Shown: positions 325 through 10,899, counted from the stretch's first letter. The stretch is DNA of 10,942 nucleotides from Promethearchaeota archaeon (GCA_048939465.1 JBHLPL010000065.1:1-10942); one strand, 5' to 3'. Program-made: numbers and translations. Notes: a model not told the origin generated them from the sequence alone.

Positions 325-2163
325 TCACCGGGTCATTTTTACGTATTCTCCAAGTTCCTCTGCCACATACGCCAGCCCCAACTTCTCCAGCGTTTTTTTG
401 GTGGGTATCCCCCTCTCATCCCATCCTCTGGCTTCGTAATACCACGAAAGCATTTTTTCGTATCCATCTCTATCGAGCTTTCTTCCTTTTAGTGGGCCTT
501 TCGTAAGAGGTTCTTCGAACCATCTTTCTGGAACAGAGTCCATTTTCCTGTTCCATTCGCCTCCGAGCTCTCGCACCCAGAATGCTCTAATCAGTGCGTA
601 TATCCTATCACCGATGACGTATAACTCATTCATCGTGTAAGAGATACCCGTTACAGCCTTAATGTATTTAGGATACCAGTCCATTTCAAACCCAAGTTCA
701 ATCCACGGAAGTCTACAGGTACCCATCCCCTCGAAAATCCCTCCCCTTATCCTTTGGAATTCAATTATCTTATCAACCTTGTCTCTACTGTATGATTCTC
801 TCCCTACTTTCATTTCCCATGCTATAATCCACGCATCTTTATGGTGTGCGCCGATGGGGGAGGTGCCGAAAGCCAGAGCCATGCCTGGATTACAGTGACA
901 GTCATATGCAGAGGCCACCAATCCTTTGGAATGGATCGCCCAAACGTGTGACCCTTGTCCGAGTCTCTGTGAGAATCGCTCGACACCGTCTGCAATAGTA
1001 TTGCCTAAACCTCTCCTGTAGGCAGTATCCTTAATCAGCTTCTTAACTTTCTCAAAATTGCCCCACTCTATCTTCTCGTCGATCAGACCCTTCTCTGAGG
1101 CCTCCATTGCAAAGCTAATCGTTCCTCCCAATGTTATGGTGTCGATCCCGTAATCGTCAGCCAGCCAAATCAGAGAGCCGATCTCCCTCAGATCGTCCAT
1201 TCCGATATTTGCCCCCAGCATTCCTACATTCTCATAATCCATTTCGACGGGTCTCTTCTCTGTGTCAAGGATTCTGTTCCCGCATCGCATGTTGCAGAGC
1301 GGACATCCAATTCGATCATGCTTCATTTCCTCCATCACATCACCGCTAATACTCTCTGCCTGCTCGAAGCGACCCTCTTTAAAGTTGTATGAGGGCAAGC
1401 AGGATGTCTCTTGGCACCAAGAATGCACGCCCATAGTTCCTTGCCTAATCCAAAAGTCATAGTTCTCTTTCTTCTTTACTTCATTGTAGCCTTCTCGACC
1501 TAGCTTCTTTAGTTCATCCGGATCCGCCAAAGGAGTTTTTTTGGAACCTTTAATCACTACTGCTTTCAGACCTTTGGAGCCCATTACTGCCCCGATGCCT
1601 GGTCTGCCTCCTGCCCTACCCTCCATTGACATGATCACAGCGTATAGAACTTTGTTTTCGCCACCTTGCCCAATGCTCAAAACACCCGCATTCTTTCCAT
1701 ATTTCTCCTCAAGCCTCTTGTGTGTTTCAAAAGACCCAAGTCCCCACAAGTCTGCTGCTGGAAGAATCTCCGCTTCATCATCATCTATATAGACATATAC
1801 GGGTTTATCTGAGGCTCCTTCAAAGATAATCGCATCAAAACCTGCCTTTCTTAATTGAATTCCTCCATATGTGCCTATATTTCCATCTCCATATCCACCG
1901 GTAAGTGGACTTTTTGCTGCAACTATCAGCTTTCCGCTGCTTGGTAATACTGCGCCAGTCAATGGACCTGCTGCCATTATGAGCTTGTTTTCAGGAGCTA
2001 AAGGATCAACTCCAGGTTTGAGTTCGTCCCAGAGGATTTTGACCGCAAACCCCCTCCCGCCAAGGAACTCCAAAGCCCATTTCCTATCATATTCTTGGGT
2101 CTTGATTTCTTGGTTTGAAAGATTGATTCTCAAGAATTTGCCATTCCACCCCTTCAACAACAT
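325..2163 (-). CDS. for: Tungsten-containing aldehyde:ferredoxin oxidoreductase, formaldehyde ferredoxin oxidoreductase (FOR)-like
   Basis: The motifs KGWNGKFLRINLS, GGRG, ENKLIMAAGPLTG, AAKSPLTGGYGDGNIG, EGRAGGRPGIGAVMGSKGLKAVV, the [4Fe-4S] ligands GCPLCNMRCGN plus GTCRLPW, DYENVGMLG, GAHHKDAW and YYEARGWDERGIP closely follow Pyrococcus FOR as recalled. The track start (2175) is likely too far upstream. Use ATG 2163, or TTG 2157 (MKGWNGK, 5 nt after GGTGA). Confidence 0.93.
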   Translation of the reverse strand: MLLKGWNGKFLRINLSNQEIKTQEYDRKWALEFLGGRGFAVKILWDELKPGVDPLAPENKLIMAAGPLTGAVLPSSGKLIVAAKSPLTGGYGDGNIGTYGGIQLRKAGFDAIIFEGASDKPVYVYIDDDEAEILPAADLWGLGSFETHKRLEEKYGKNAGVLSIGQGGENKVLYAVIMSMEGRAGGRPGIGAVMGSKGLKAVVIKGSKKTPLADPDELKKLGREGYNEVKKKENYDFWIRQGTMGVHSWCQETSCLPSYNFKEGRFEQAESISGDVMEEMKHDRIGCPLCNMRCGNRILDTEKRPVEMDYENVGMLGANIGMDDLREIGSLIWLADDYGIDTITLGGTISFAMEASEKGLIDEKIEWGNFEKVKKLIKDTAYRRGLGNTIADGVERFSQRLGQGSHVWAIHSKGLVASAYDCHCNPGMALAFGTSPIGAHHKDAWIIAWEMKVGRESYSRDKVDKIIEFQRIRGGIFEGMGTCRLPWIELGFEMDWYPKYIKAVTGISYTMNELYVIGDRIYALIRAFWVRELGGEWNRKMDSVPERWFEEPLTKGPLKGRKLDRDGYEKMLSWYYEARGWDERGIPTKKTLEKLGLAYVAEELGEYVKMTR

Positions 2164-2177
2164 CACCCAAATCAATT

Positions 2178-2458: not shown

Positions 2459-2848
2459 ATGGTGATTGTCGTGGATTTAGAGCTGGATATAAGCATCTGT
2501 AAACTAGCCCAAATTCTGGAGGAAATCGGGTTTGAATGGGTCAAAATCAGGAGGGGTAGTTTGGAGGCCAAAATGAAAGACGGTTGTGGGAGGATACATA
2601 TACTTGCTAAGGAAATAGAGAAGAACGAGGTATATGTAGACGTTCATTGGGACGCTCTGATCCATTTCATCTTTTTCGGAGTGGACTATGCAAGGAGACC
2701 AGAAAAAGTATGTAGTATGATTATCAAGAAAATGGAAGAGAAAGAAATGAAATGGAAGGCGGTTGGAGGAACGAACTGGTTTAGCAGGAGAAATAAGGCG
2801 ATAATAAAAGGACTCAAGATACGAAACTACAAGGTCCTTTGCCCGTAG
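2459..2848 (+). CDS. Hypothetical protein (125-129 aa, Lys/Arg-rich C-terminus)
   Basis: It is the only substantial ORF in the gap and has a protein-like composition with no recognisable motif. GGTGA (2461-2465) lies 5 nt before GTG 2471, which is probably the true start (MDLELDISICKL). Confidence 0.7.
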   Translation: MVIVVDLELDISICKLAQILEEIGFEWVKIRRGSLEAKMKDGCGRIHILAKEIEKNEVYVDVHWDALIHFIFFGVDYARRPEKVCSMIIKKMEEKEMKWKAVGGTNWFSRRNKAIIKGLKIRNYKVLCP

Positions 2849-2966: not shown

Positions 2967-4004
2967 TTATGCAAATTTGGTTGAATCAATGGTTTTCAAT
3001 TTTTCGATTAGCTTTGGGATGATTTCAAATAAGTCTCCGACAATACAGTAATCTGCAGCCTTAAAGATTGGCGAATTGGCGTCTTTGTTGATGGCGATAA
3101 TCTTCTTGGAGTTTTTCATGCCTATCAGATGCTGTATTGCTCCGGAAATACCACAAGCGATGTAAATATCAGGCTTAACAGTCTGACCTGTTAATCCAAC
3201 TTGATGGCCATAGGAGATCCATCCAGCATCTACTGCCGCTCTCGAGGCCCCAACCTCTGCACCAAGAAGGTCTGCCAACTCTTTTATCAATTTGAAACCC
3301 ATGGGACCAGCGACTCCCCTGCCACCACTAACGATTATTCTCGCGTTTTCTAAACTCATTTCATCGTCTTTTCTAATAATGTCAAGAATGTCCACAAAGA
3401 GACAGCTTTCTCCTAATTTGATTTCCTCCGGTATAATCTCCCCCCTTCTTGAGGTGTTCTTCTCTAATGGCTCGAATATTCCCCGTCTCACAGTAGCCAT
3501 TTGAGGGCGTCTATCAGGATTTACTATCGTAGCCATTACGTCTCCGCCAAAAGCAGGCCTAATTTGATGAAGAATTCTCTCATATTCCTTTCCATTCTTC
3601 TTATCTCGCCAATTCCCAATTTCTAGATCTGTGCAGTCGGCAGTCAATCCTGTCTCTAGTCTAGTCGCAATTCTGGGCGCAAGATCCCTGCCGGTGGTGT
3701 CCGCAGCGAAAAGGAGTATTTCTGGTTTTTCTTTTCTTATAAGTTCTGTTAGGACATGTGCATAAGGTAATGTCGAATAAGTTCTAAGTTTTTCATTCTC
3801 TACTAGATAGACTTTATCTGCTCCGCGTTCTATTAGTTCGGGAGCAAGTGATTCAACTTCAAACCCAAGAAGCAAGGCGGATAAATCGATTTCAATTTCA
3901 TCTGCTAACCGTCTTCCCTTAGCTAACAGTTCTAGAGTAGATCTCTTGACTTTTCTATCTTGATGATTCGCATAAATCCAGACCCCTCTATATTCGCCTT
4001 TCAT
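2967..4004 (-). CDS. etfA: Electron transfer flavoprotein subunit alpha (FixB family)
   Basis: GVWIYA, KPEILLFAADTTGRDLAPRIATRLETGLTADCT, IRPAFGG, RPQMATVR, and the FAD-domain motifs IIVSGGRGV, VGASRAAVDAGW, QVGLTGQTVKPDIYIACGISGAIQHLIGM and IAINKDANSPIF. Confidence 0.97.
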   Translation of the reverse strand: MKGEYRGVWIYANHQDRKVKRSTLELLAKGRRLADEIEIDLSALLLGFEVESLAPELIERGADKVYLVENEKLRTYSTLPYAHVLTELIRKEKPEILLFAADTTGRDLAPRIATRLETGLTADCTDLEIGNWRDKKNGKEYERILHQIRPAFGGDVMATIVNPDRRPQMATVRRGIFEPLEKNTSRRGEIIPEEIKLGESCLFVDILDIIRKDDEMSLENARIIVSGGRGVAGPMGFKLIKELADLLGAEVGASRAAVDAGWISYGHQVGLTGQTVKPDIYIACGISGAIQHLIGMKNSKKIIAINKDANSPIFKAADYCIVGDLFEIIPKLIEKLKTIDSTKFA

Positions 4005-4806
4005 ATGAATTCCCCAAACTCACGTCATCTTCTTCCAATCTTTTCAGAAAATTATCGATAACTTCATCTATGGTTTCACCCTCAACCATGTACCTGTCCC
4101 TCTGAGAAATCATCTTCTCGATTTTCCTTATTTTTGTTGGTGAACCAGAAAGACCAATCTTGCACTCATCCACTCCAATATCCTTTGTCGATAATGCTGT
4201 CAGAGGCATCTTTGTTGCTCTGATTATCCCTGCAAAAGTTGTGCCTCTAGGTTCATTTGCAGTATTCGTGATTGTCAACAAAGCGGGTAGTTTCACTCTG
4301 GCTATTTCATAACCACCTTCAAGCATGCGTCTTGCTTCTGCGTATTTTCCCCCAACTTTGAGATTGTCAACATATGTTATTTGAGGAATCCCAAGGCGTT
4401 CGGCAACACCTGGGCCAACTTGGCCAGTATTCCCATCGCTTGCTTCCATTCCACACAATATCAGGTCATAGCAGTCAAGCTTTTTGATCGCACAGGCTAA
4501 AGCGTAAGAGGTTGCCAGAGTATCTGATCCTGGAAGTCTTTTATCTGAGAGCAATACAGCTTCATCTGCCCCCATTGCTAGAGCTTCTCTAAGAACATCC
4601 CTGGCTTTGGGCGGCCCCATTGAAACTGCGGTTATTTTTGCATCGGATTTTTCTTTAATGGTAAGTGCCGCTTCTAACGCGTTTTTATCATAAGGGTTGA
4701 TTATTGAGCTGGCTTTTTCCCTGTCGAGTGTTCCGTCTTCTTTTATCCCGACATAGCCCTTTGGATCAGGAACCTGTTTTATTAAGACGATAATGTGTAG
4801 AGTCAT
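3988..4806 (-). CDS. etfB: Electron transfer flavoprotein subunit beta (FixA family)
   Basis: IIVLIKQVPD, INPYDKNALEAAL, SMGPPKA, LAMGADEAVLLSD, GSDTLATS, DGNTGQVGPGVA and GLSGSPTKI. ATG 4806 overlaps the upstream TGA (TGATG). The gene overlaps etfA by 17 nt. Confidence 0.97.
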   Translation of the reverse strand: MTLHIIVLIKQVPDPKGYVGIKEDGTLDREKASSIINPYDKNALEAALTIKEKSDAKITAVSMGPPKARDVLREALAMGADEAVLLSDKRLPGSDTLATSYALACAIKKLDCYDLILCGMEASDGNTGQVGPGVAERLGIPQITYVDNLKVGGKYAEARRMLEGGYEIARVKLPALLTITNTANEPRGTTFAGIIRATKMPLTALSTKDIGVDECKIGLSGSPTKIRKIEKMISQRDRYMVEGETIDEVIDNFLKRLEEDDVSLGNSYERRI

Positions 4807-7373
4807 CAAATCCCACTCTCATATTCCGCTAATGCCGCAATTTCCACCGGCGTAATCTTTCTATATACCTCTCTCGGTTTCTTTCTAACTCCCTGGACAG
4901 TGAGAAGGTCTTCAATTTTGATTCCAAATAATTGCTGGTTTTCCTTCAATAACGGCAGAATCCTTTGCCAATCTTGAGTAGATAAAGAAACGATTTTCCC
5001 ACCATTAAGTTGGTCTTCCCCTACCGTCTGCCAAGGATCTCTCAAATAGATTGAACTTGCAGCAGCAAGGGGAAGCAAATTCCCTCCATGATATGGAGTC
5101 TCCTGTTCAACGAGTTTTCCACCTTCGTTGAACGTAATTCCATTCAGGATGATGAAACCATTTGCGGCCATGCAGGATTCGCCCATGTAATCCTTGCATG
5201 AGCCATTTATCACGGCAGTTGAACTTCCGACAGCATTGATCAGTGGTCTATCATTTAAGTCTCCCAATACAAATGTGACTCCGCCTTTGGCACCGTACTC
5301 AAACGCTTTTCCTGCATCCCCAAAAATCACTAGTTTTCCCGACCTAAAGCAATACGCAACTGAATCTTGAACGCTTTCATGAACATAAAATTCAGGACCA
5401 TCTGCAAAAGCAGCAAGACAGTCTCCAACCCGACCATATACATCGATCTTCATCGTGTCCCGAGCTACAAGCCCCGCTCCGAAGTTTCTTTGCCCTCTAA
5501 AGTTGTAGGCTATGATTTCCCGCCATCCGAGTTCATAAGCTTTGCTAAGAAACCGACATGTCCCGTCATCTCCTTCTGGGTCGAAATCACGCACATCGAT
5601 GATCAAAGTCTGGTTTGGGCGTAAGGGCTTTCTTATTCTTTCTCTATATTCAAAGTCGACCAAACAATATCGGCTTTCTAAGCCAGATTTTATGGACGGT
5701 GCAGAACTGAATAATCTAAAAAGCGCTTTCTCAATTAGACTAACTATGTCGCTTCTTTTCTTATCACCAGTTTCGTATCTCCTATCAATCAGGTGTGTCA
5801 ACGCCTTAATTGCCAGAGACCTCTCCTTATCCCCTTTCTCTCCAAACTTCCTCATTCTTTCTGCAAAATAGTGCAATTCATCGAAATCCCATTCTTTGAT
5901 GGCCTTTGAAGCATAATGGAAGAAGTTGGTGGGCCTCTGCAGTATTTTTGATATTTCTGCATCTATGGTGGGAGAAGTACTCTTTTGATAGATAGGCTTC
6001 TTCTTATAATGAAGTTGATGATTTGCGGTCGAGATGGGTTTTCCAAACTTATCGGTGCACACCAGATTTCTTGATTCATCGACTGTAAACAGGAAGGCAC
6101 CACCATCGGTATAGCTTCCTCCTCTGGCATACCAGTACCTATCAGCCCTTGGATGAAATCTATCGTCACTTTCCGCTAGGCTCTCAAGCATTGCGTCTAT
6201 TGCTTGTTTCTCAGATGCAATAAGCCCTATTCCGAGTGTTCCTTCTTGAAGAGCAAAAACCTGTGGCCTCAACATCGAAGTATCTGTTATACCAATAAGT
6301 TGAAATCGCCTTTTGAGAGGGTCATTTCTAGCAATTATGAAAAACCATGGACCATCCGGGGAGCCGTGAGCATGTGTCGTTTGAATCACGCGATATATTT
6401 GCTTTTTTTCTTCGGGCAGCATCACAAAATCTCTTTCGGTTGTTGGAGCGATAGCCTCGATGGAATATTCCAATGGGTAACGATACACTCTCGTCAGTAG
6501 ATCCCAGTATAGGGCAGCAACTTCTGTGTCCGTCAAAAAGAGAGGGTACATGTTTCTTTGCCTAAGATACTCAGCTATCGAATAGTAGTTTGCGAAATCA
6601 CCGTTGTGAACCAAAGCATCATGTAATCCAATAAAGGGATGCGCTCCTCCCGGATGCCAGATTTTGCCTTTTGTCGGATACCTCTGGTGCCCCATCCAAA
6701 TATGAGCCTCAAGATCTTCAAGCAAATAATACTTCAGAACTTGCTCCGCATATCCGACGATCTTTAAAACCATCATATTCTTTCCGTGAGAAACAACAAA
6801 AGCCTTTTTTTTGACAAGTGAAGCATAGAACTTCTCGTTCAAACTGAAGCTATTTCGATAAATGAACTCATCTTCTGCCACGCTTGGATCTGAGTCAGGT
6901 TTGCTTTCCTCAATGAAGCTTTGTAATACGTCCTCGTCTACTTTCGTAAAATACCTCCAAACTTCAGGAGGTCTAACATCTAATCCAAGGCTCCTATAAT
7001 CTTGTAAGGTCGGAATCCTCTCCGTATAATCAATGGCAAGATATGGTTTTAGGAATTCATCCTCAACGCTCTTCCTTGATTTAGGATCTAGATAAGCCAC
7101 CTGTATCAGATAATCCTCCTCCAAGACTCTTTTGGGTACCCCCAGTTGCATGTGAGAAAGCCCGACCGCCGCTAAACCACCACCCTTCCCATTACCTCTG
7201 TTGTGCATCTGCACCATTGGTCGTAGCAGATGTTCCCCTCTAATTGGGAGAGAACAGGCAACTCCGAGAACACCACATCCGCCTTCGGCTATTCTCTGTT
7301 GAAACTTTGAGTTAGAAGAATATCTGAGCATTTTTTCCTTCGAGATATTCTTGTTGTCTGACTTACTCGTCAT
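4806..7373 (-). CDS. gltB1: Glutamate synthase-like subunit: class II glutamine amidotransferase (GltB1) fused to a GXGXG beta-helix domain (GltB3)
   Basis: The Ntn nucleophile context AEGG-CGVLG (Cys33), HNRGNGKGGG, GHQRYPT, HPF, VHNGDFANY and TDTEVAAL mark the GATase domain. The C-terminal repeats GQRNFGAGL, GRVGDCLAAFADG, GDAGKAFEYGAKGG and LINAVG mark the GXGXG domain. Confidence 0.88.
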   Translation of the reverse strand: MTSKSDNKNISKEKMLRYSSNSKFQQRIAEGGCGVLGVACSLPIRGEHLLRPMVQMHNRGNGKGGGLAAVGLSHMQLGVPKRVLEEDYLIQVAYLDPKSRKSVEDEFLKPYLAIDYTERIPTLQDYRSLGLDVRPPEVWRYFTKVDEDVLQSFIEESKPDSDPSVAEDEFIYRNSFSLNEKFYASLVKKKAFVVSHGKNMMVLKIVGYAEQVLKYYLLEDLEAHIWMGHQRYPTKGKIWHPGGAHPFIGLHDALVHNGDFANYYSIAEYLRQRNMYPLFLTDTEVAALYWDLLTRVYRYPLEYSIEAIAPTTERDFVMLPEEKKQIYRVIQTTHAHGSPDGPWFFIIARNDPLKRRFQLIGITDTSMLRPQVFALQEGTLGIGLIASEKQAIDAMLESLAESDDRFHPRADRYWYARGGSYTDGGAFLFTVDESRNLVCTDKFGKPISTANHQLHYKKKPIYQKSTSPTIDAEISKILQRPTNFFHYASKAIKEWDFDELHYFAERMRKFGEKGDKERSLAIKALTHLIDRRYETGDKKRSDIVSLIEKALFRLFSSAPSIKSGLESRYCLVDFEYRERIRKPLRPNQTLIIDVRDFDPEGDDGTCRFLSKAYELGWREIIAYNFRGQRNFGAGLVARDTMKIDVYGRVGDCLAAFADGPEFYVHESVQDSVAYCFRSGKLVIFGDAGKAFEYGAKGGVTFVLGDLNDRPLINAVGSSTAVINGSCKDYMGESCMAANGFIILNGITFNEGGKLVEQETPYHGGNLLPLAAASSIYLRDPWQTVGEDQLNGGKIVSLSTQDWQRILPLLKENQQLFGIKIEDLLTVQGVRKKPREVYRKITPVEIAALAEYESGI

Positions 7374-7377
7374 ATTA

Positions 7378-8928
7378 TCACTTCAAATGGTCGAGGTGAA
7401 TGAGGTGGTTAAATACACCTTTATGGAACTCTATCTCACACTTAGGCCGAAGATCCCTTATGTTTCTCAACTCAAGCCTTGTCAGAATGTAGTGCCACTG
7501 CTTTTTCCACGAATGATATAAGTTGATTATCCTCTGAGCACCCCATTCTGGATCAATCAGGTGCATTAGAGCTTGATCTGTTGTGGCTATACCAGAGGGA
7601 CAGCCTCTTCCTCTCTCACAGTTTTCGCACCTTTTGCATCCAAGCGCAACTAATTCAGCAGTTCCAATTACGGCCCCATCAGCTCCCAAAGAGATGATTT
7701 TTGCCACATCAAAAGCCGTCCTTATCCCGCCGCTAGCCATTACAACAATTTCATCCCTTACTCCTTCCTTAACCAAATAATTATGAACTATTGGAATTGC
7801 GTATTCAATTGGCATAGCGATATTCTTTTTTGCCACATCAGGAGCTGCACCTGTTCCGCCACATCCTCCGTCGATCTGTAATATATTGGCGTTTGCATAG
7901 TAACTTCCAATTGCAACCATATCTACATCAGTAGGAGTTGAGACCTTAACAGAGACCAGCACTTCAGGATTGATATCTTTCATTAATTGAACATGCCTAT
8001 AGTGGTCTTCAACGGAGTAAACGTTATGGAACGGAAAAGGAGAAAACAGACTTATATGCGGAACAACCTCTCTTATTTTTGCAACGTCTGCAGTAACTTT
8101 ATCTGCTAATAAATGGCCGCCTAATCCTGGTTTTGCGCCTTGAGCATATTTGAGAACTACAATCCTGGCTCTCTTTATGGTTTCAGCATTTACGCCGAAA
8201 TGACCCGTTGCAATTTGAGTAATAACATTATCCTTGTACGGGATTAATGAATCAGGATAGCCTCCTTCTCCAGTGCTTGTGAAAATGTTCCAAGCTCTGG
8301 CAGCTTTGGCCCTTGCAAGCATTACGTTCAGACTTATGGAGCCAAAAGACATATCTGCGCCATATACTGGAATTGGAAGCTTGATTTGAGGTCGCCCGTC
8401 ATGCCTTTTGTTCAGAACTATTGTAGTATCAACTCTAGTATTCTCAAATGACTCATAGTCGACTGGCACATCCTCGTGTAACTCGAAATCAAATCTTATT
8501 CTGTCAAACCCCCCGCCAGAACTGCCAATCCTATGTTCATAGATCCTTGGAATTGTACCATTTTCGGCCTGTTCCCAAGTTGACAGTATCAAATCTGAAG
8601 TCCAGCGGTAATCACCGAGCGTCAAATATTGCGAACTAGTTCTGACTGTCAGCGCATTTGCAGGGCATGACTCTATACATCGCTCACAGGAAATACCAGA
8701 ACATGATTCATTTGAATTATCCAGACGGACATATCCTTCAGGCTTCTTAAAGGCTTCATAATCGATTGACGCAGAGCCCAAATAGTCTGGGCACACCTCA
8801 ACACACATTCCACAGGCAGTACACTTGGCTCTATCTAGAATCACTTCATGCTTTCTTATTGTGCTTGGATAAGGGAATCTTGTACGCTTTATTCCGGGTA
8901 TAGAGGCAAGAATCTGTTTTTGCATCAT
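7378..8928 (-). CDS. gltB2: Glutamate synthase FMN-binding subunit (GltB2) with an N-terminal 2x[4Fe-4S] ferredoxin domain
   Basis: CTACGMCVEVCP and CSGISCERCIESCP, then MSFGSIS, STGEGG, QIATGHFGV, KYAQGAKPGLGGHL, FSPFPFHNVYSVED, VSVKV, IDGGCGGTGAAP, ASGGIR, LGADG and GCKRCENCERGRGCPSGIAT. Confidence 0.92.
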   Translation of the reverse strand: MMQKQILASIPGIKRTRFPYPSTIRKHEVILDRAKCTACGMCVEVCPDYLGSASIDYEAFKKPEGYVRLDNSNESCSGISCERCIESCPANALTVRTSSQYLTLGDYRWTSDLILSTWEQAENGTIPRIYEHRIGSSGGGFDRIRFDFELHEDVPVDYESFENTRVDTTIVLNKRHDGRPQIKLPIPVYGADMSFGSISLNVMLARAKAARAWNIFTSTGEGGYPDSLIPYKDNVITQIATGHFGVNAETIKRARIVVLKYAQGAKPGLGGHLLADKVTADVAKIREVVPHISLFSPFPFHNVYSVEDHYRHVQLMKDINPEVLVSVKVSTPTDVDMVAIGSYYANANILQIDGGCGGTGAAPDVAKKNIAMPIEYAIPIVHNYLVKEGVRDEIVVMASGGIRTAFDVAKIISLGADGAVIGTAELVALGCKRCENCERGRGCPSGIATTDQALMHLIDPEWGAQRIINLYHSWKKQWHYILTRLELRNIRDLRPKCEIEFHKGVFNHLIHLDHLK

Positions 8929-10346
8929 TCGTCACTTCCGAAAATTCTCATTTGGAGATCTTCGTAGAACATGGCTCTACCGATCTCACCTCTTTGCCTT
9001 CTCACTTCACGTAAACCCATTCCGCTGAGAACTTCTAGAAGCTGATCTCTCCAAGATCCCACCAGGTTGACGATCCTCTGAACTGCCCATTCAACGTCTT
9101 GGTCTTTAATTCCTAAAGGACAGTCTTCGGAGTCAAGAGTACCCTGGCAGATCTTGCACCCCAAGGCAATCTGGTAAGCCAAATCAATGGTTACAGCGTC
9201 TGCTCCAAGAATTATAGACTTAGGAATATGAGCTGCTTCAGCCACTCCACCGCCAAATATCAAAGTGACCTCATTCCGAATATTCTTTTTGACGAGATAC
9301 GAATGAACCTGACAAATTGCATTCTTAATTAATTCTGGATCCTCTTCTACCGCTTTGTTATCAATGTGAAGAGAGATCATATCTGCACCCTTCTCTGCCA
9401 GCATATATGCTGTCTCATGAGAGTTTTCATCATATGAAACACGAAACGAGACTAGTGCTGATGGATTTATTCTCTTAATTCTTTCCAGAGAATCTTGAAT
9501 TTGATGATCCTTCTCATTAAGGTCAACCTCAACGATTCTTGAAAGCTTGATTAGGTAACCAAACTCATCAATTTCACTGGGCTTGAACGTAGGAATTATG
9601 CTTGACTTGTACGGAAGTAAGCTTTCTGAGTAAACCTCCGAATCTACATTTGAAAAAGTTCCGAGTCTTGAAGCTGCCTTTGCAACAGCAAGCTGAAGAT
9701 TATCTTTTGTTTTTGAGCAGGCAGGTGCACCCAAAATTATCGGTATTGGAATCCCGATGGTCTTTGGGGGAGTAGAAAGAAGCCTTCCATCTTCTCCAAA
9801 GCGAAGATAGGGTAACTTCCTTCCTAAATCAACCGATGTGGAAATGTATTCTCTCCCATGGATTCCGTCTCTTGTAGGTCTTACGATTTCTGAAAAATCA
9901 AACCAAAGGCTGTCTAATCCTCTTCCAGCGAAAGGACCTTTATAGCCTGTCCCAGAAACAGGCACCTTACCAGTTTCTGCCTCAAAATGGATTGTTCTTA
10001 TTCGATTCGGTGTATAGTAGGAGTTACCTAATTTCTTAAATTCCGGATTGGCTTCAACCGAAATTGCGTTTTTGGGACAGTTTAGAACACAAGAAAAACA
10101 ACCCCTGCATAATTCGTGAATGGGGTCCGCTATTTTCCCGTCTTCGTCGACTAGGTGAACACCATATATGCACGCTTGAGCGCATTCTTGAACATTTACA
10201 CAGTTATTATAGCGTTTAACAATGAATCTGGGGGGTATCTTAATTAGGGGAGGGGCTTCTTTTACCTCAATTCGATATCTTACAAACTTTGTCTTAGGCG
10301 TTCTAAAGGGCTTAGATACCGCTTCTTTCTTTGACACATTTGTCAT
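8925..10346 (-). CDS. Degenerate GltB2-like paralogue (ferredoxin plus FMN-barrel-like domain), probably non-catalytic
   Basis: The true start is ATG 10346 (473 aa); the extra 86 codons in the track are antisense to the Lrp gene and promoter. It aligns by eye with the adjacent GltB2: VHSYLVKKNIRNEV vs VHNYLVKEGVRDEI, ILGADAV vs SLGADGA, EWAVQRIVNL vs EWGAQRIINL. It lacks MSFGS, TGEGG, QGAKPG and DGGCGGTG. Confidence 0.85.
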   Translation of the reverse strand: MTNVSKKEAVSKPFRTPKTKFVRYRIEVKEAPPLIKIPPRFIVKRYNNCVNVQECAQACIYGVHLVDEDGKIADPIHELCRGCFSCVLNCPKNAISVEANPEFKKLGNSYYTPNRIRTIHFEAETGKVPVSGTGYKGPFAGRGLDSLWFDFSEIVRPTRDGIHGREYISTSVDLGRKLPYLRFGEDGRLLSTPPKTIGIPIPIILGAPACSKTKDNLQLAVAKAASRLGTFSNVDSEVYSESLLPYKSSIIPTFKPSEIDEFGYLIKLSRIVEVDLNEKDHQIQDSLERIKRINPSALVSFRVSYDENSHETAYMLAEKGADMISLHIDNKAVEEDPELIKNAICQVHSYLVKKNIRNEVTLIFGGGVAEAAHIPKSIILGADAVTIDLAYQIALGCKICQGTLDSEDCPLGIKDQDVEWAVQRIVNLVGSWRDQLLEVLSGMGLREVRRQRGEIGRAMFYEDLQMRIFGSDE

Positions 10347-10408
10347 GAGAAGGATTTTTATACTAGAACTATTTAAGGATTCTTGCAAGAATACTGAATG
10401 AACATTCA
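10347..10408. promoter_or_regulatory. Divergent control region with interleaved TATA boxes and two 14-bp palindromes
   Basis: Plus strand: purine-rich GAGAAGGA (10347-10354), then TTTTTATA (10355-10362). Minus strand: TTAAATA (10376..10370), 23 nt before ATG 10346, with no SD. Palindromes: ATTCTTGCAAGAAT (10379-10392) and TGAATG-AA-CATTCA (10395-10408). Confidence 0.6.
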
Positions 10409-10434
10409 AAAGAAGGGCGAGGAATGTGAAAAAA

Positions 10435-10899
10435 ATGAAAATCAGAGATCTCTCTGCCTTGACGGAAGAAACAGATGTTAAAATCCTAAAAGTCCTACTC
10501 TCGGAAGCCAAGCTATCAAATAGACAGATTGCAAAAAGGGTCGGTGTTTCTGTTAACACAGTAATATCAAGAATAAGGAAAATGGAGGAAAAAAGGATAA
10601 TCAAAGGGTATACTGCCGTTTTGGATCATGAAATGTTGGGATATGATCTGACTGTAATTACAGAAATAACAGTCTCAGAGGGCAGACTATTGGAGATGGA
10701 AAAAGAAATCGCGAAAATACCAAATGTTTGTGCTGTCTACGATGTTACTGGCCTTATTGATGCTATAGTCGTTGCGAAGTTTAGGAATAGAGAAGAACTA
10801 AGCAAATTCACCAAAGGCTTACTTGCGCTACCTTTCATTGAGAGGACAAATACACATCTGGTATTAACAACAGTAAAAGAGGAGTATAAAATGGTCTAG
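10435..10899 (+). CDS. Lrp/AsnC-family transcriptional regulator
   Basis: HTH region DVKILKVL..EAKLSNRQIAKRVGVSVNTVISRIRKMEEKRIIKGY, linker LGYDL, and RAM domain VYDVTGLIDAIV...ERTNTHLVL. ATG 10435 lies 5 nt after the SD-like GGAATGTGA. GTG 10426 is an alternative start. Confidence 0.95.
   Translation: MKIRDLSALTEETDVKILKVLLSEAKLSNRQIAKRVGVSVNTVISRIRKMEEKRIIKGYTAVLDHEMLGYDLTVITEITVSEGRLLEMEKEIAKIPNVCAVYDVTGLIDAIVVAKFRNREELSKFTKGLLALPFIERTNTHLVLTTVKEEYKMV

Follow-up and report, generated by a model that had tools for sequence, protein, structure and literature searches.

Which electron donor serves a split glutamate synthase that is encoded beside EtfAB, and is that ETF dedicated to it? The question is raised by a five-gene operon of a Promethearchaeota (Asgard) archaeon, for which the window (the whole stretch of DNA analysed) corresponds to one entire contig (10.9 kb) from a MAG that is 91% complete. 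No published description of a pairing between EtfAB and a split glutamate synthase was found in the literature.

Gene order and boundaries of the operon

Five ORFs lie on the minus strand and encode, from upstream to downstream, a GltB2-like subunit (8925..10346, 473 aa), the GltB2 catalytic subunit (7378..8928, 516 aa), a GltB1-linker-GltB3 fusion (4806..7373, 855 aa), the small subunit EtfB (3988..4809, 273 aa) and the large subunit EtfA (2967..4004, 345 aa); we refer to the first three genes as the triad. Successive genes are joined by an ATGA overlap (8925-8928), a 4-nt gap (7374-7377, TGA-TAAT-ATG), a TGATG overlap (4804-4808) and a 17-nt overlap (3988-4004), and re-reading of the sequence reproduced all of the ORFs and junctions reported in the initial annotation. 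EtfB is likely to start at the ATG at 4806, which overlaps the stop codon of the fusion gene. The longest ORF of the GltB2-like gene extends to a TTG at 10604, and because this extension would overlap the divergent gene, the ATG at 10346 is the sensible start.

The divergent gene (10426..10899, plus strand) codes for an Lrp/AsnC-family transcription regulator with Pfam AsnC_trans_reg and HTH_24/HTH_AsnC domains. In the intergenic region between the two genes (10347..10425) we read A/T-rich TATA-like boxes (TTAAATAG and TATAAAAA) directly upstream of the ATG at 10346; this region is a probable promoter, and the mRNA made from it is possibly leaderless. The unit had been described as bounded by a divergent regulator and a convergent gene, and although the regulator is borne out by its domains, the convergent gene is an orphan 129-aa ORF (2459-2848, plus strand) that has positive GC skew as its sole support and no family match in Pfam and NCBIfam profile searches. 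Nowhere in the 10.9-kb window is there a gltD, a fixCX or a gene for an acyl-CoA or lactate dehydrogenase, in agreement with the earlier statement on the operon. Other members of the genus and order of the window genome lack the triad, so the operon was probably acquired laterally; the composition of the contig is typical of its genome.

Composition of the triad

GltB2 is composed of an N-terminal 2x[4Fe-4S] ferredoxin domain and an FMN barrel (Pfam Glu_synthase PF01645, 302 bits), and it aligns with residues 882-1167 of the A. brasilense GltS alpha subunit. The motifs QGAKPGxGG, SPxPxHxxYSxED and GGTGA(A/S)P are all kept, matching A. brasilense GltS residue for residue. At the four-cysteine cluster site CxxCxxCx5CP, C431, C437 and C443 align with the three [3Fe-4S] cysteines of that enzyme and C434 is extra; all eight cysteines of the ferredoxin domain and all four of the C-terminal site are invariant in 35 homologues.

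The GltB2-like subunit was initially taken for a second gltB2, but alignment with GltB2 identifies it as a catalytically degenerate paralogue, in which the barrel has lost the FMN and substrate motifs KYAQGAKPGLGGHLL and DGxxGGTGAAP. It has an N-terminal ferredoxin domain (Fer4_7), a partial Glu_synthase match (57 bits) and three cysteines kept at the C-terminal cluster site. Its gene is the first of the triad and is kept in about 90 loci, and the subunit probably has a structural role or serves as an electron wire. We infer that the subunit is equivalent to the GltS central domain; the match to Glu_syn_central is weak (E 4e-5), and that to the FMN domain is better.

The 855-aa fusion was assigned through homologue alignment, AlphaFold and Foldseek, its Pfam matches being sub-threshold (GATase_6, and GXGXG at 30.7 bits against a cut-off of 32.5). 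A propeptide (residues 1-32) is followed by an Ntn glutaminase domain with Cys33, a helical linker (about 465-560) and a C-terminal GXGXG beta-helix. The sequence GGC33GV stands directly after the propeptide, and C33, R59, N257-G258, D282, the HNGDF motif and the GXGXG glycines are invariant across 48 homologues. In the AlphaFold model (pLDDT 85.5), residues 1-31 are disordered and the beta-helix strands span 619-796; in the Foldseek ranking, glutamate synthase large subunits come top, as whole-chain matches, followed by GlmS and PurF.

Judged by sequence and predicted fold, the three-gene triad is a complete split glutamate synthase, and it is predicted to convert glutamine, 2-oxoglutarate and two electrons to two glutamates. 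Compared with GltBD (A. brasilense 1EA0, 2VDC, 6S6S) and Fd-GltS (Synechocystis 1OFD), it has matching FMN-domain motifs and cluster cysteines, the same N-terminal cysteine of an Ntn glutaminase behind a propeptide, and the same GXGXG beta-helix. It differs from them in being split into three polypeptides with another order, in having a degenerate second barrel where the central domain would be, and in having extra ferredoxin domains and a four-cysteine rather than a three-cysteine cluster site; unlike GltBD, it is without GltD and has an ETF in its place.

The linked ETF and its recurrence

EtfA matches the Pfam families ETF and ETF_alpha (159 and 122 bits) and has no N-terminal ferredoxin domain; EtfB matches ETF (162 bits). 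The best PDB matches of EtfB are CarD, C. difficile EtfB, T. maritima EtfABCX, LctB and A. fermentans EtfB (155-208 bits, against at most 105 bits for non-bifurcating ETFs). Those of EtfA are CarE (327 bits) and T. maritima EtfABCX (322 bits, 7KOE chain B), with the five solved bifurcating ETFs at 246-327 bits and the non-bifurcating ones at no more than 156. All five thus outscore every non-bifurcating ETF, by at least 50 bits for EtfB and at least 90 bits for EtfA. The EtfA sequence IRPAFGG aligns with TRPTFGG of T. maritima and keeps the RPxFGG arginine, which is nearly invariant among 24 ETFs and is essential for bifurcation in EtfABCX (PMC10734219). By these scores and the RPAFGG motif the window EtfAB is of the group-2 (bifurcating) sequence type, in line with the initial annotation.

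Small-subunit motifs of bifurcating ETFs include GxxSPTxV and RxGV (PMC10734219). In the window EtfB the former reads GLSGSPTKI, with a conservative V-to-I change, and the latter reads REKA, with the arginine kept and GV lost; DGDT is DGNT (in DGNTGQVGP), the second aspartate being replaced by asparagine. A T. maritima R38Q variant retains partial bifurcation (PMC10734219). ETFs with 57-59% identity to the window EtfA occur in classical bcd-etfBA clusters. The best NCBIfam match is the acryloyl-CoA reductase ETF of C. propionicum, which to our knowledge has not been found to reduce ferredoxin.

At least 592 species genomes, from anaerobic archaea and bacteria, carry the triad, and gltB-etfBA synteny recurs beyond the source genome, a point that the initial annotation had proposed to check. 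The etfBA genes are directly downstream of the triad in 12 of the 27 triad-bearing Asgard genomes and likewise in Thermoproteota and Nitrososphaerota, in one unclassified archaeon and on metagenome contigs; the synteny recurs in at least 16 loci. With contigs matched by identical length, at least 12 are common to the match lists of the fusion (B1B3) and EtfA. Start/stop overlaps at these loci are conserved across phyla. The linked ETFs belong to two independent lineages, type A without a ferredoxin domain and type B/C with one, with a 99/98 branch between them. In the core tree, ETF-linked triads occupy three distinct branches, and the pairing therefore arose or was retained repeatedly. In type B operons (GS, fused barrels, B1B3, EtfB, EtfA(Fd), NadE) both ferredoxin domains of the core are lost, and all ten such cores have an ETF. 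The initial annotation also raised the prospect of gltD in homologous operons; no gltD accompanies the triad, here or at about 100 homologous loci.

Most triads have no ETF (about 85 of about 100 loci), including those of the closest Asgard relatives of the window core (G002 and G003, 71% identity), and so the triad core does not need one. The ETF is an optional input module and not part of the basic enzyme. Instead of an ETF, 38 of the roughly 100 loci (mostly bacterial) have MvhD-MetV-MetF, which lies upstream of the triad.

Other possible partners were sought in the genomes. Five acyl-CoA dehydrogenase genes lie outside the contig in the window genome, together with two further ETF pairs, both beside one of these dehydrogenase genes, and one GltD-family gene. 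The latter, the only strong Fer4_20 match, is split over the ends of two contigs (C53 and C125) and comes after an NfnA-like gene and a GDH gene; a sub-threshold Fer4_20 match is on contig C119. FixC (PF21162) has no match in this 91%-complete genome. A single EtfA is encoded in each of the Thermoproteota genomes G400 and G401. That of G400 is the triad-linked one; that of G401, on a separate contig, is taken to be the continuation of the partial EtfB at the contig end of its triad locus (L016). Neither genome has a match to Acyl-CoA_dh_1, ETFQO_UQ-bd (FixC) or FAD-oxidase_C (LctD-type).

Complex formation was predicted for EtfB, GltB2 and a shortened EtfA (residues 198-345), with alignments prepared for this analysis. 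The complex scored 0.50 against 0.24 for the best control, the runs agreed in at least 71% of contacts, and partner pLDDT was at least 74. In a benchmark, 58 of 80 solved complexes reached this mark, as did 2 of 110 mismatched pairs, and scores of 0.60 or below comprised only seven of the 80 solved complexes plus both mismatched pairs that passed. The prediction lends weak support to a physical ETF-GltB2 complex.

Electron input and alternative readings

A role of EtfBA as a dedicated NADH-input module of the triad is well supported, since the genes are joined by overlaps, the synteny recurs, and G400 and G401 have no other ETF partner. We infer a physical complex of ETF and triad, NADH as the donor, and reduction of ferredoxin. 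For the locus as a whole, an ETF-dependent glutamate synthase with group-2 EtfBA as its dedicated NADH-oxidising input module seems to us about equally likely to prove right or wrong. More tentatively, and with the greater weight on the side of doubt, we propose a flavin-based electron-bifurcating glutamate synthase with the reaction 2 NADH + oxidised ferredoxin + Gln + 2-oxoglutarate -> 2 NAD+ + reduced ferredoxin + 2 Glu.

In such an enzyme, NADH would reduce the bifurcating FAD of EtfBA, and the high-potential electron would pass from the electron-transferring FAD to the ferredoxin-domain clusters of the synthase, much as in EtfABCX, then to the cluster beside the FMN and to the FMN itself. 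Electrons from the FMN would reduce 2-iminoglutarate, formed from 2-oxoglutarate and glutamine-derived ammonia, and the low-potential electron would most likely reduce ferredoxin. A precedent for the proposed path from ETF through clusters to FMN is the route in EtfABCX, where the ET-FAD feeds two [4Fe-4S] clusters of EtfX and then a flavin, with an acceptor at -74 mV (PMC10734219). The likeness to EtfABCX/FixABCX (T. maritima PDB 7KOE) extends to a group-2 EtfAB with the RPxFGG arginine, to the order of ET-FAD, two [4Fe-4S] clusters and acceptor flavin in the proposed path, and probably to the acceptor potential (an estimated -70 mV or so for the window, and -74 mV for menaquinone); among the ETFs sampled, those of type A linked to the triad have FixC-linked Asgard ETFs as their sister group. 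The window differs in having no FixC or FixX, with the ferredoxin-like clusters residing in glutamate synthase subunits, and in that a soluble biosynthetic reaction is proposed in place of quinone reduction. Bcd-EtfAB, CarCDE and Ldh-EtfAB (5OL2, 6FAH, 7QH2, 4KPU) provide the best sequence matches for both ETF subunits, and the N-terminal ferredoxin domain of CarE and LctC is shared by the type B linked EtfA, but their partner is an FAD dehydrogenase and not an FMN/Fe-S glutamate synthase with a glutaminase.

The evidence from synteny and from partner genes fits equally well if the ETF is a plain, non-bifurcating NADH:glutamate-synthase reductase that replaces GltD, with both electrons at high potential and no ferredoxin reduced. 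The altered EtfB motifs (RxGV to REKA, DGDT to DGNT) favour this, and the C. propionicum acryloyl-CoA reductase ETF illustrates that the group-2 sequence type is no guarantee of bifurcation. By textbook estimate, however, the glutamate synthase reaction with NADH is about as exergonic as the known bifurcating acceptors. The arginine of RPxFGG, essential in EtfABCX, is kept in the window EtfA (PMC10734219), and type B EtfA retains its N-terminal ferredoxin domain as in CarE and LctC; we regard a plain reductase as unlikely, if a serious contender.

It is more improbable still that there is no dedicated partnership, such that the triad is ferredoxin-dependent, EtfBA serves other dehydrogenases, and their adjacency reflects co-regulation or a hitch-hiking pair. 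The triad core does occur without ETF in most lineages and has ferredoxin domains of its own, the five acyl-CoA dehydrogenases of the window genome could use the linked ETF in trans, near relatives of this ETF are Bcd-linked, and the ETF-GltB2 complex prediction is weak. Against this, the triad-etfBA start/stop overlaps are kept across phyla, triads have recruited two independent ETF lineages to the same position, and two other ETF pairs already adjoin an acyl-CoA dehydrogenase in the window genome. Moreover, G400 and G401 have a single ETF and no acyl-CoA dehydrogenase, FixC or LctD-type match, and type B cores that lack ferredoxin domains have an ETF without exception (10/10).

We also considered whether the triad is an amidotransferase-coupled reductase that uses a different 2-oxo acid or amine, for instance in the manner of N-methylglutamate synthase, whose MgsABC subunits are GltB1/B3/B2 homologues working without an external electron donor. 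The triad family has no characterised member, the glutaminase and GXGXG parts of the fusion are below Pfam thresholds and very divergent from GltB1 and GltB3, and at one locus (L054) a second, more canonical gltB set adjoins the triad. But the GltB2 substrate and FMN motifs and cluster cysteines are identical to those of A. brasilense GltS, the triad is the only GltS-family (Glu_synthase) locus in the window genome, and its neighbours in relatives include glutamine synthetase (17 loci) and other nitrogen-assimilation genes, with NadE (13), CPSase (12), Amt (9) or an Lrp/AsnC regulator (13) also beside it. We know of no need for an external reductant or Fe-S wire in N-methylglutamate synthase, no protein of the operon has an Mgs-type NCBIfam match, and three Fe-S sites with ETF coupling favour a redox enzyme; the N-methylglutamate synthase-like reaction raised initially is without support and does not fit the Fe-S wiring of the triad, and we regard it as very improbable that the triad is something other than a glutamate synthase. 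Reverse (confurcating) glutamate oxidation, also suggested initially, is likewise unsupported and unlikely, given the conserved glutaminase nucleophile and the presence of glutamine synthetase and enzymes that use glutamine among the neighbours.

An exchangeable electron-input module on split archaeal-type GltS modules is a design shared with the putative F420-dependent, FrhB-linked glutamate synthases of methanogens and ANME (PMC3448663, PMC9012536); in the window the input module is EtfAB instead. If the electron-bifurcating reading is true, the locus would add a new kind of partner to those of bifurcating ETFs, and its enzyme would be a glutamate synthase of a new class. The pairing may allow nitrogen to be assimilated at the expense of NADH with ferredoxin recharged at the same time, and if so anaerobes would regain energy from a glutamate synthase reaction that is strongly exergonic.

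Operon layout and glutamate synthase subunits

The window is one entire contig (10,942 bp) of a 1.96 Mb metagenome-assembled genome that is 91% complete, and its proteins find their nearest named homologues in Njord-, Heimdall-, Hod- and Lokiarchaeia. Misbinning of the contig was ruled out (GC content 42.7% versus 43.4% for the genome, with a tetranucleotide distance equal to the genome median). Reading of the sequence bore out the five minus-strand genes of the initial annotation and their junctions: an ATGA overlap (8925–8928), a 4-nt gap (7374–7377), a TGATG overlap (4804–4808) and a 17-nt overlap (3988–4004). The ATG at 10346 is the sensible start for the first gene because a longer, TTG-started ORF enters the divergent Lrp/AsnC gene upstream of the operon. 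The convergent gene proposed at the other end is present as a 129-aa ORF (2459–2848, plus strand), but it is an orphan that matches nothing in Pfam or NCBIfam and lacks homologues both in the genome and among the fetched loci, and positive GC skew is the one indication that it is coding. Beyond it, on the same strand as etfA and ~800 bp downstream, is a full-length tungsten-type aldehyde:ferredoxin oxidoreductase gene (325–2175, minus strand; AFOR_N 255 bits, AFOR_C 385 bits), encoding a ferredoxin-reducing enzyme that adjoins a putatively ferredoxin-linked operon.

To judge from its sequence, GltB2 (516 aa) is a genuine FMN domain of glutamate synthase: it matches PF01645 at 302 bits, carries an N-terminal 2x[4Fe-4S] domain, and, at the substrate and FMN motifs and the cluster cysteines, aligns position by position with A. 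brasilense GltS, with an extra cysteine giving a CxxCxxCx5CP site. Pfam matches to the 855-aa product of the third gene are all sub-threshold. Its Cys33, which follows a disordered 32-residue propeptide, its HNGDF motif and its GXGXG glycines are invariant in 48 homologues, and the best fold matches of its AlphaFold model (pLDDT 85.5, pTM 0.88) are glutamate synthase large subunits, followed by GlmS and PurF; we therefore interpret it as a GltB1–linker–GltB3 fusion (B1B3). The product of the first gene (GltB2-like, 473 aa) is missing the KYAQGAKPGLGGHLL and DGxxGGTGAAP segments and is not a second catalytic subunit. GltB2-like retains a ferredoxin domain and, where the cluster would sit, three cysteines, matches PF04898 weakly, and may be a stand-in for the GltS central domain. 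These two are the only Glu_synthase-family genes in the genome, and together with B1B3 we refer to them as the triad.

ETF type and linkage to the triad

EtfA and EtfB are both full-length. In comparisons with each of them, all five bifurcating ETFs of solved structure (CarDE, C. difficile EtfAB, T. maritima EtfABCX, LctBC and A. fermentans EtfAB) outscore all non-bifurcating ETFs, the margin being 50 bits or greater with EtfB and 90 bits or greater with EtfA. EtfB contains DGNTGQVGP and GLSGSPTKI, with REKA replacing RxGV, and EtfA contains RPAFGG, a motif whose arginine is essential to bifurcation in T. maritima EtfABCX (PMC10734219). In an EtfA tree the triad-linked ETFs form two clades split by a 99/98 branch; the window's clade (type A) lacks a ferredoxin domain and, within the tree sample, groups as sister to FixC-linked ETFs, and the other (type B, plus locus L075) has an N-terminal ferredoxin domain. 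The sister relationship is confined to that sample; a global search placed ETFs with 57–59% identity to the window's EtfA in bcd clusters. All near relatives are thus group-2 ETFs, the bifurcating sequence type, with classical partners.

The gltB–etfBA synteny recurs beyond the window genome, in archaeal genomes and metagenome contigs. As in the window, etfBA lies directly after B1B3 in two metagenome contigs (L011 and L012), a Thermoproteota genome (L019), a Nitrososphaerota genome (L016, where the contig ends inside etfB), an unclassified archaeon (L075) and 11 further Asgard genomes, and at least 12 contigs, matched by identical length, are common to the B1B3 and EtfA match lists. Among 400 genomes searched, 27 Asgard genomes carry the triad and 12 of these are ETF-linked. 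The triad is absent from the window genome's own genus and own order, so the operon was probably acquired laterally as a unit. Its closest genome-level relative (L102, in an Asgard genome) has a sixth gene, of the ornithine cyclodeaminase/mu-crystallin family (5009–6100), overlapping the end of etfA.

ETF-linked loci occupy three positions in a B1B3 tree: an archaeal clade where they are mixed with ETF-less Bathyarchaeia, Thermoplasmatota and Asgard members, an all-ETF Asgard clade, and L075 by itself. The EtfA tree rules out a single origin of linkage for the two ETF types. Within type A a single origin is possible; the B1B3 tree requires at least three changes, and the GltB2 tree of the clade is an unresolved polytomy. 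Type B operons, represented by L111 (4729–15266, in an Asgard genome) and nine related loci (L103–L112), contain a 130-aa ORF followed by genes for glutamine synthetase, an 821-aa fusion of the GltB2-like and GltB2 barrels from which both ferredoxin domains have been lost, B1B3, EtfB, ferredoxin-domain EtfA and NadE. Loss of the ferredoxin domains is accompanied by ETF in type B and L075 (10/10 cases). It does not predict ETF generally, failing at L035 and in a third triad clade (L115–L121, Asgard families f9–f12), which have neither ferredoxin motifs in the barrels nor an adjacent ETF; genomes of this third clade, where no other adjacent partner is seen, bear FixC-linked EtfAB elsewhere (L122–L124, L130), sister to the window's ETF type in the sample.

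Three residues set the four ETF-linked members of the archaeal clade apart from the rest: A38 (8815–8817, inside C36-x2-C39) and L457 of GltB2, and V50 of GltB2-like (10197–10199, next to C49); random subsets of four members match this in only 0.8% and 6% of cases. With four sequences and an unresolved phylogeny we regard these as a hint and not as evidence, although A38 and V50, which lie at the first cysteine motif of their respective ferredoxin domains, could mark a surface where ETF docks.

The triad family and other redox partners

Database relatives of the 855-aa fusion number more than 7,600, and it occurs across at least 592 GTDB species genomes, in groups including Bathyarchaeia, Thermoplasmatota, ANME-1, Desulfobacterales, Syntrophales and Dehalococcoidia. 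The order GltB2-like, GltB2, B1B3 is held in nearly all loci with sufficient flank. Neighbouring genes cluster around nitrogen assimilation: glutamine synthetase (17 loci), Lrp/AsnC and glutamine-dependent NadE (13 loci each), carbamoyl-phosphate synthase (12 loci) and Amt (9 loci). None of the ~100 triad loci carries gltD, whose presence in homologous operons had been raised as a check. MvhD–MetV–MetF genes occur in the upstream flank of 38 of these ~100 loci, mostly bacterial (among L022–L090; for example L037 3426–5014 and L074 4066–4497), with an additional 975-aa HdrA-like protein at L068, and no partner is visible at 41 further loci. One Thermodesulfobacteriota locus (L054) has a more canonical gltB1/gltB2 pair directly downstream of the triad (5857–8338; 32–33% identity to the triad proteins), suggesting that the two systems are not redundant.

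A GltD encoded elsewhere in the window genome was ruled out as the true partner. The sole strong GltD-family gene comes after glutamate dehydrogenase and NfnA-like genes (the row spanning C53 17038–19592 and C125 2–1264) and so reads as part of NfnAB; it is split over the ends of the two contigs, which are therefore probably adjacent in the genome. FixC was not found in this 91%-complete genome. There are five acyl-CoA dehydrogenase genes, one of which is on contig C67 (515–5455), divergent from two further, tandem EtfB–EtfA pairs; of these, the first EtfA (403 aa) includes a 2x[4Fe-4S] domain at its N terminus, and the second pair is divergent and truncated by the contig end.

ETF as a putative electron-input module

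The best-supported reading of these comparisons is that the ETF would be an optional but dedicated NADH-input module of the glutamate synthase. The operon differs from FixABCX in lacking FixC and FixX, from Bcd–EtfAB in lacking an adjacent acyl-CoA dehydrogenase, and from GltBD in lacking GltD, but has parts in common with each of the three; it would represent an established enzyme core fitted with a new input module, and a known type of ETF joined to a new partner.

In T. maritima EtfABCX, NADH reduces the bifurcating FAD, from which the high-potential electron passes via ET-FAD, two [4Fe-4S] clusters and an acceptor flavin to menaquinone (-74 mV), and the low-potential electron passes directly to ferredoxin (PMC10734219). 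In the window's enzyme EtfX would have its counterpart in the ferredoxin domains of GltB2 and GltB2-like, and the acceptor flavin in FMN. By textbook free energies, glutamine-driven 2-oxoglutarate reduction is ~0.25 V above NAD+/NADH, i.e. near -70 mV, within the range of known ETF high-potential acceptors, which makes bifurcation thermodynamically plausible. Alternatively, the ETF could be a non-bifurcating NADH reductase. The recurring linkage and the group-2 ETF type support part of the initial annotation's candidate electron-bifurcating glutamate synthase, and we place the likelihood of bifurcation itself at slightly under even.

A partnership between the ETF and the glutamate synthase, bifurcating or not, is probable on the genomic comparisons. 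It could be proposed instead that the two merely neighbour one another and that the ETF serves the genome's acyl-CoA dehydrogenases, but this is less likely given that ETF has been recruited repeatedly and with translational coupling, and given the genomes holding L019 and L016. Each has one EtfA, which in the former is the linked one and in the latter is on another contig, presumed to be the continuation of L016; both contain glutamine synthetase, and neither, completeness not being stated, has an Acyl-CoA_dh_1, ETFQO_UQ-bd or FAD-oxidase_C match. Complex prediction with our own alignments lends the partnership weak support: EtfA 198–345 with EtfB and GltB2 scored 0.50 versus 0.24 for the best control. 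Of 80 solved complexes 58 attain that mark, as do 2 of 110 mismatched pairs, with scores of 0.60 or below coming from only 7 of the 80 solved complexes and from both passing mismatches. Runs agreed in at least 71% of contacts, with partner pLDDT of at least 74. That the triad is a related but different amidotransferase-reductase is made less likely by the conserved GltS residues and the nitrogen-assimilation context.

Our literature searches turned up no account of a glutamate synthase linked to ETF, and the initial annotation knew of no characterised example. Glutamate synthase is the main entry of nitrogen into biomass, and its known electron donors are NAD(P)H via GltD, ferredoxin and, putatively, F420. 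To our knowledge the partners of bifurcating ETFs are few, namely acyl-CoA and caffeyl-CoA reductases, lactate dehydrogenase and FixCX/quinone. Split archaeal GltS domains are known solely as ORFs (PMC8097209), and F420-linked glutamate synthases have been proposed (PMC3448663, PMC9012536). The comparative data delimit the triad as a large, uncharacterised split glutamate synthase family with members in at least 592 species, and its exchangeable inputs (none, ETF, or Hdr/MvhD/MetFV) offer a ready test system for the swapping of electron-input modules. An ETF-driven glutamate synthase would give the ETF family a new partner and glutamate synthases a new donor; if bifurcating, it would also let a biosynthetic step restore low-potential ferredoxin, which bears on the narrow energy margins of Asgard archaea, Thermoproteota and other subsurface anaerobes.
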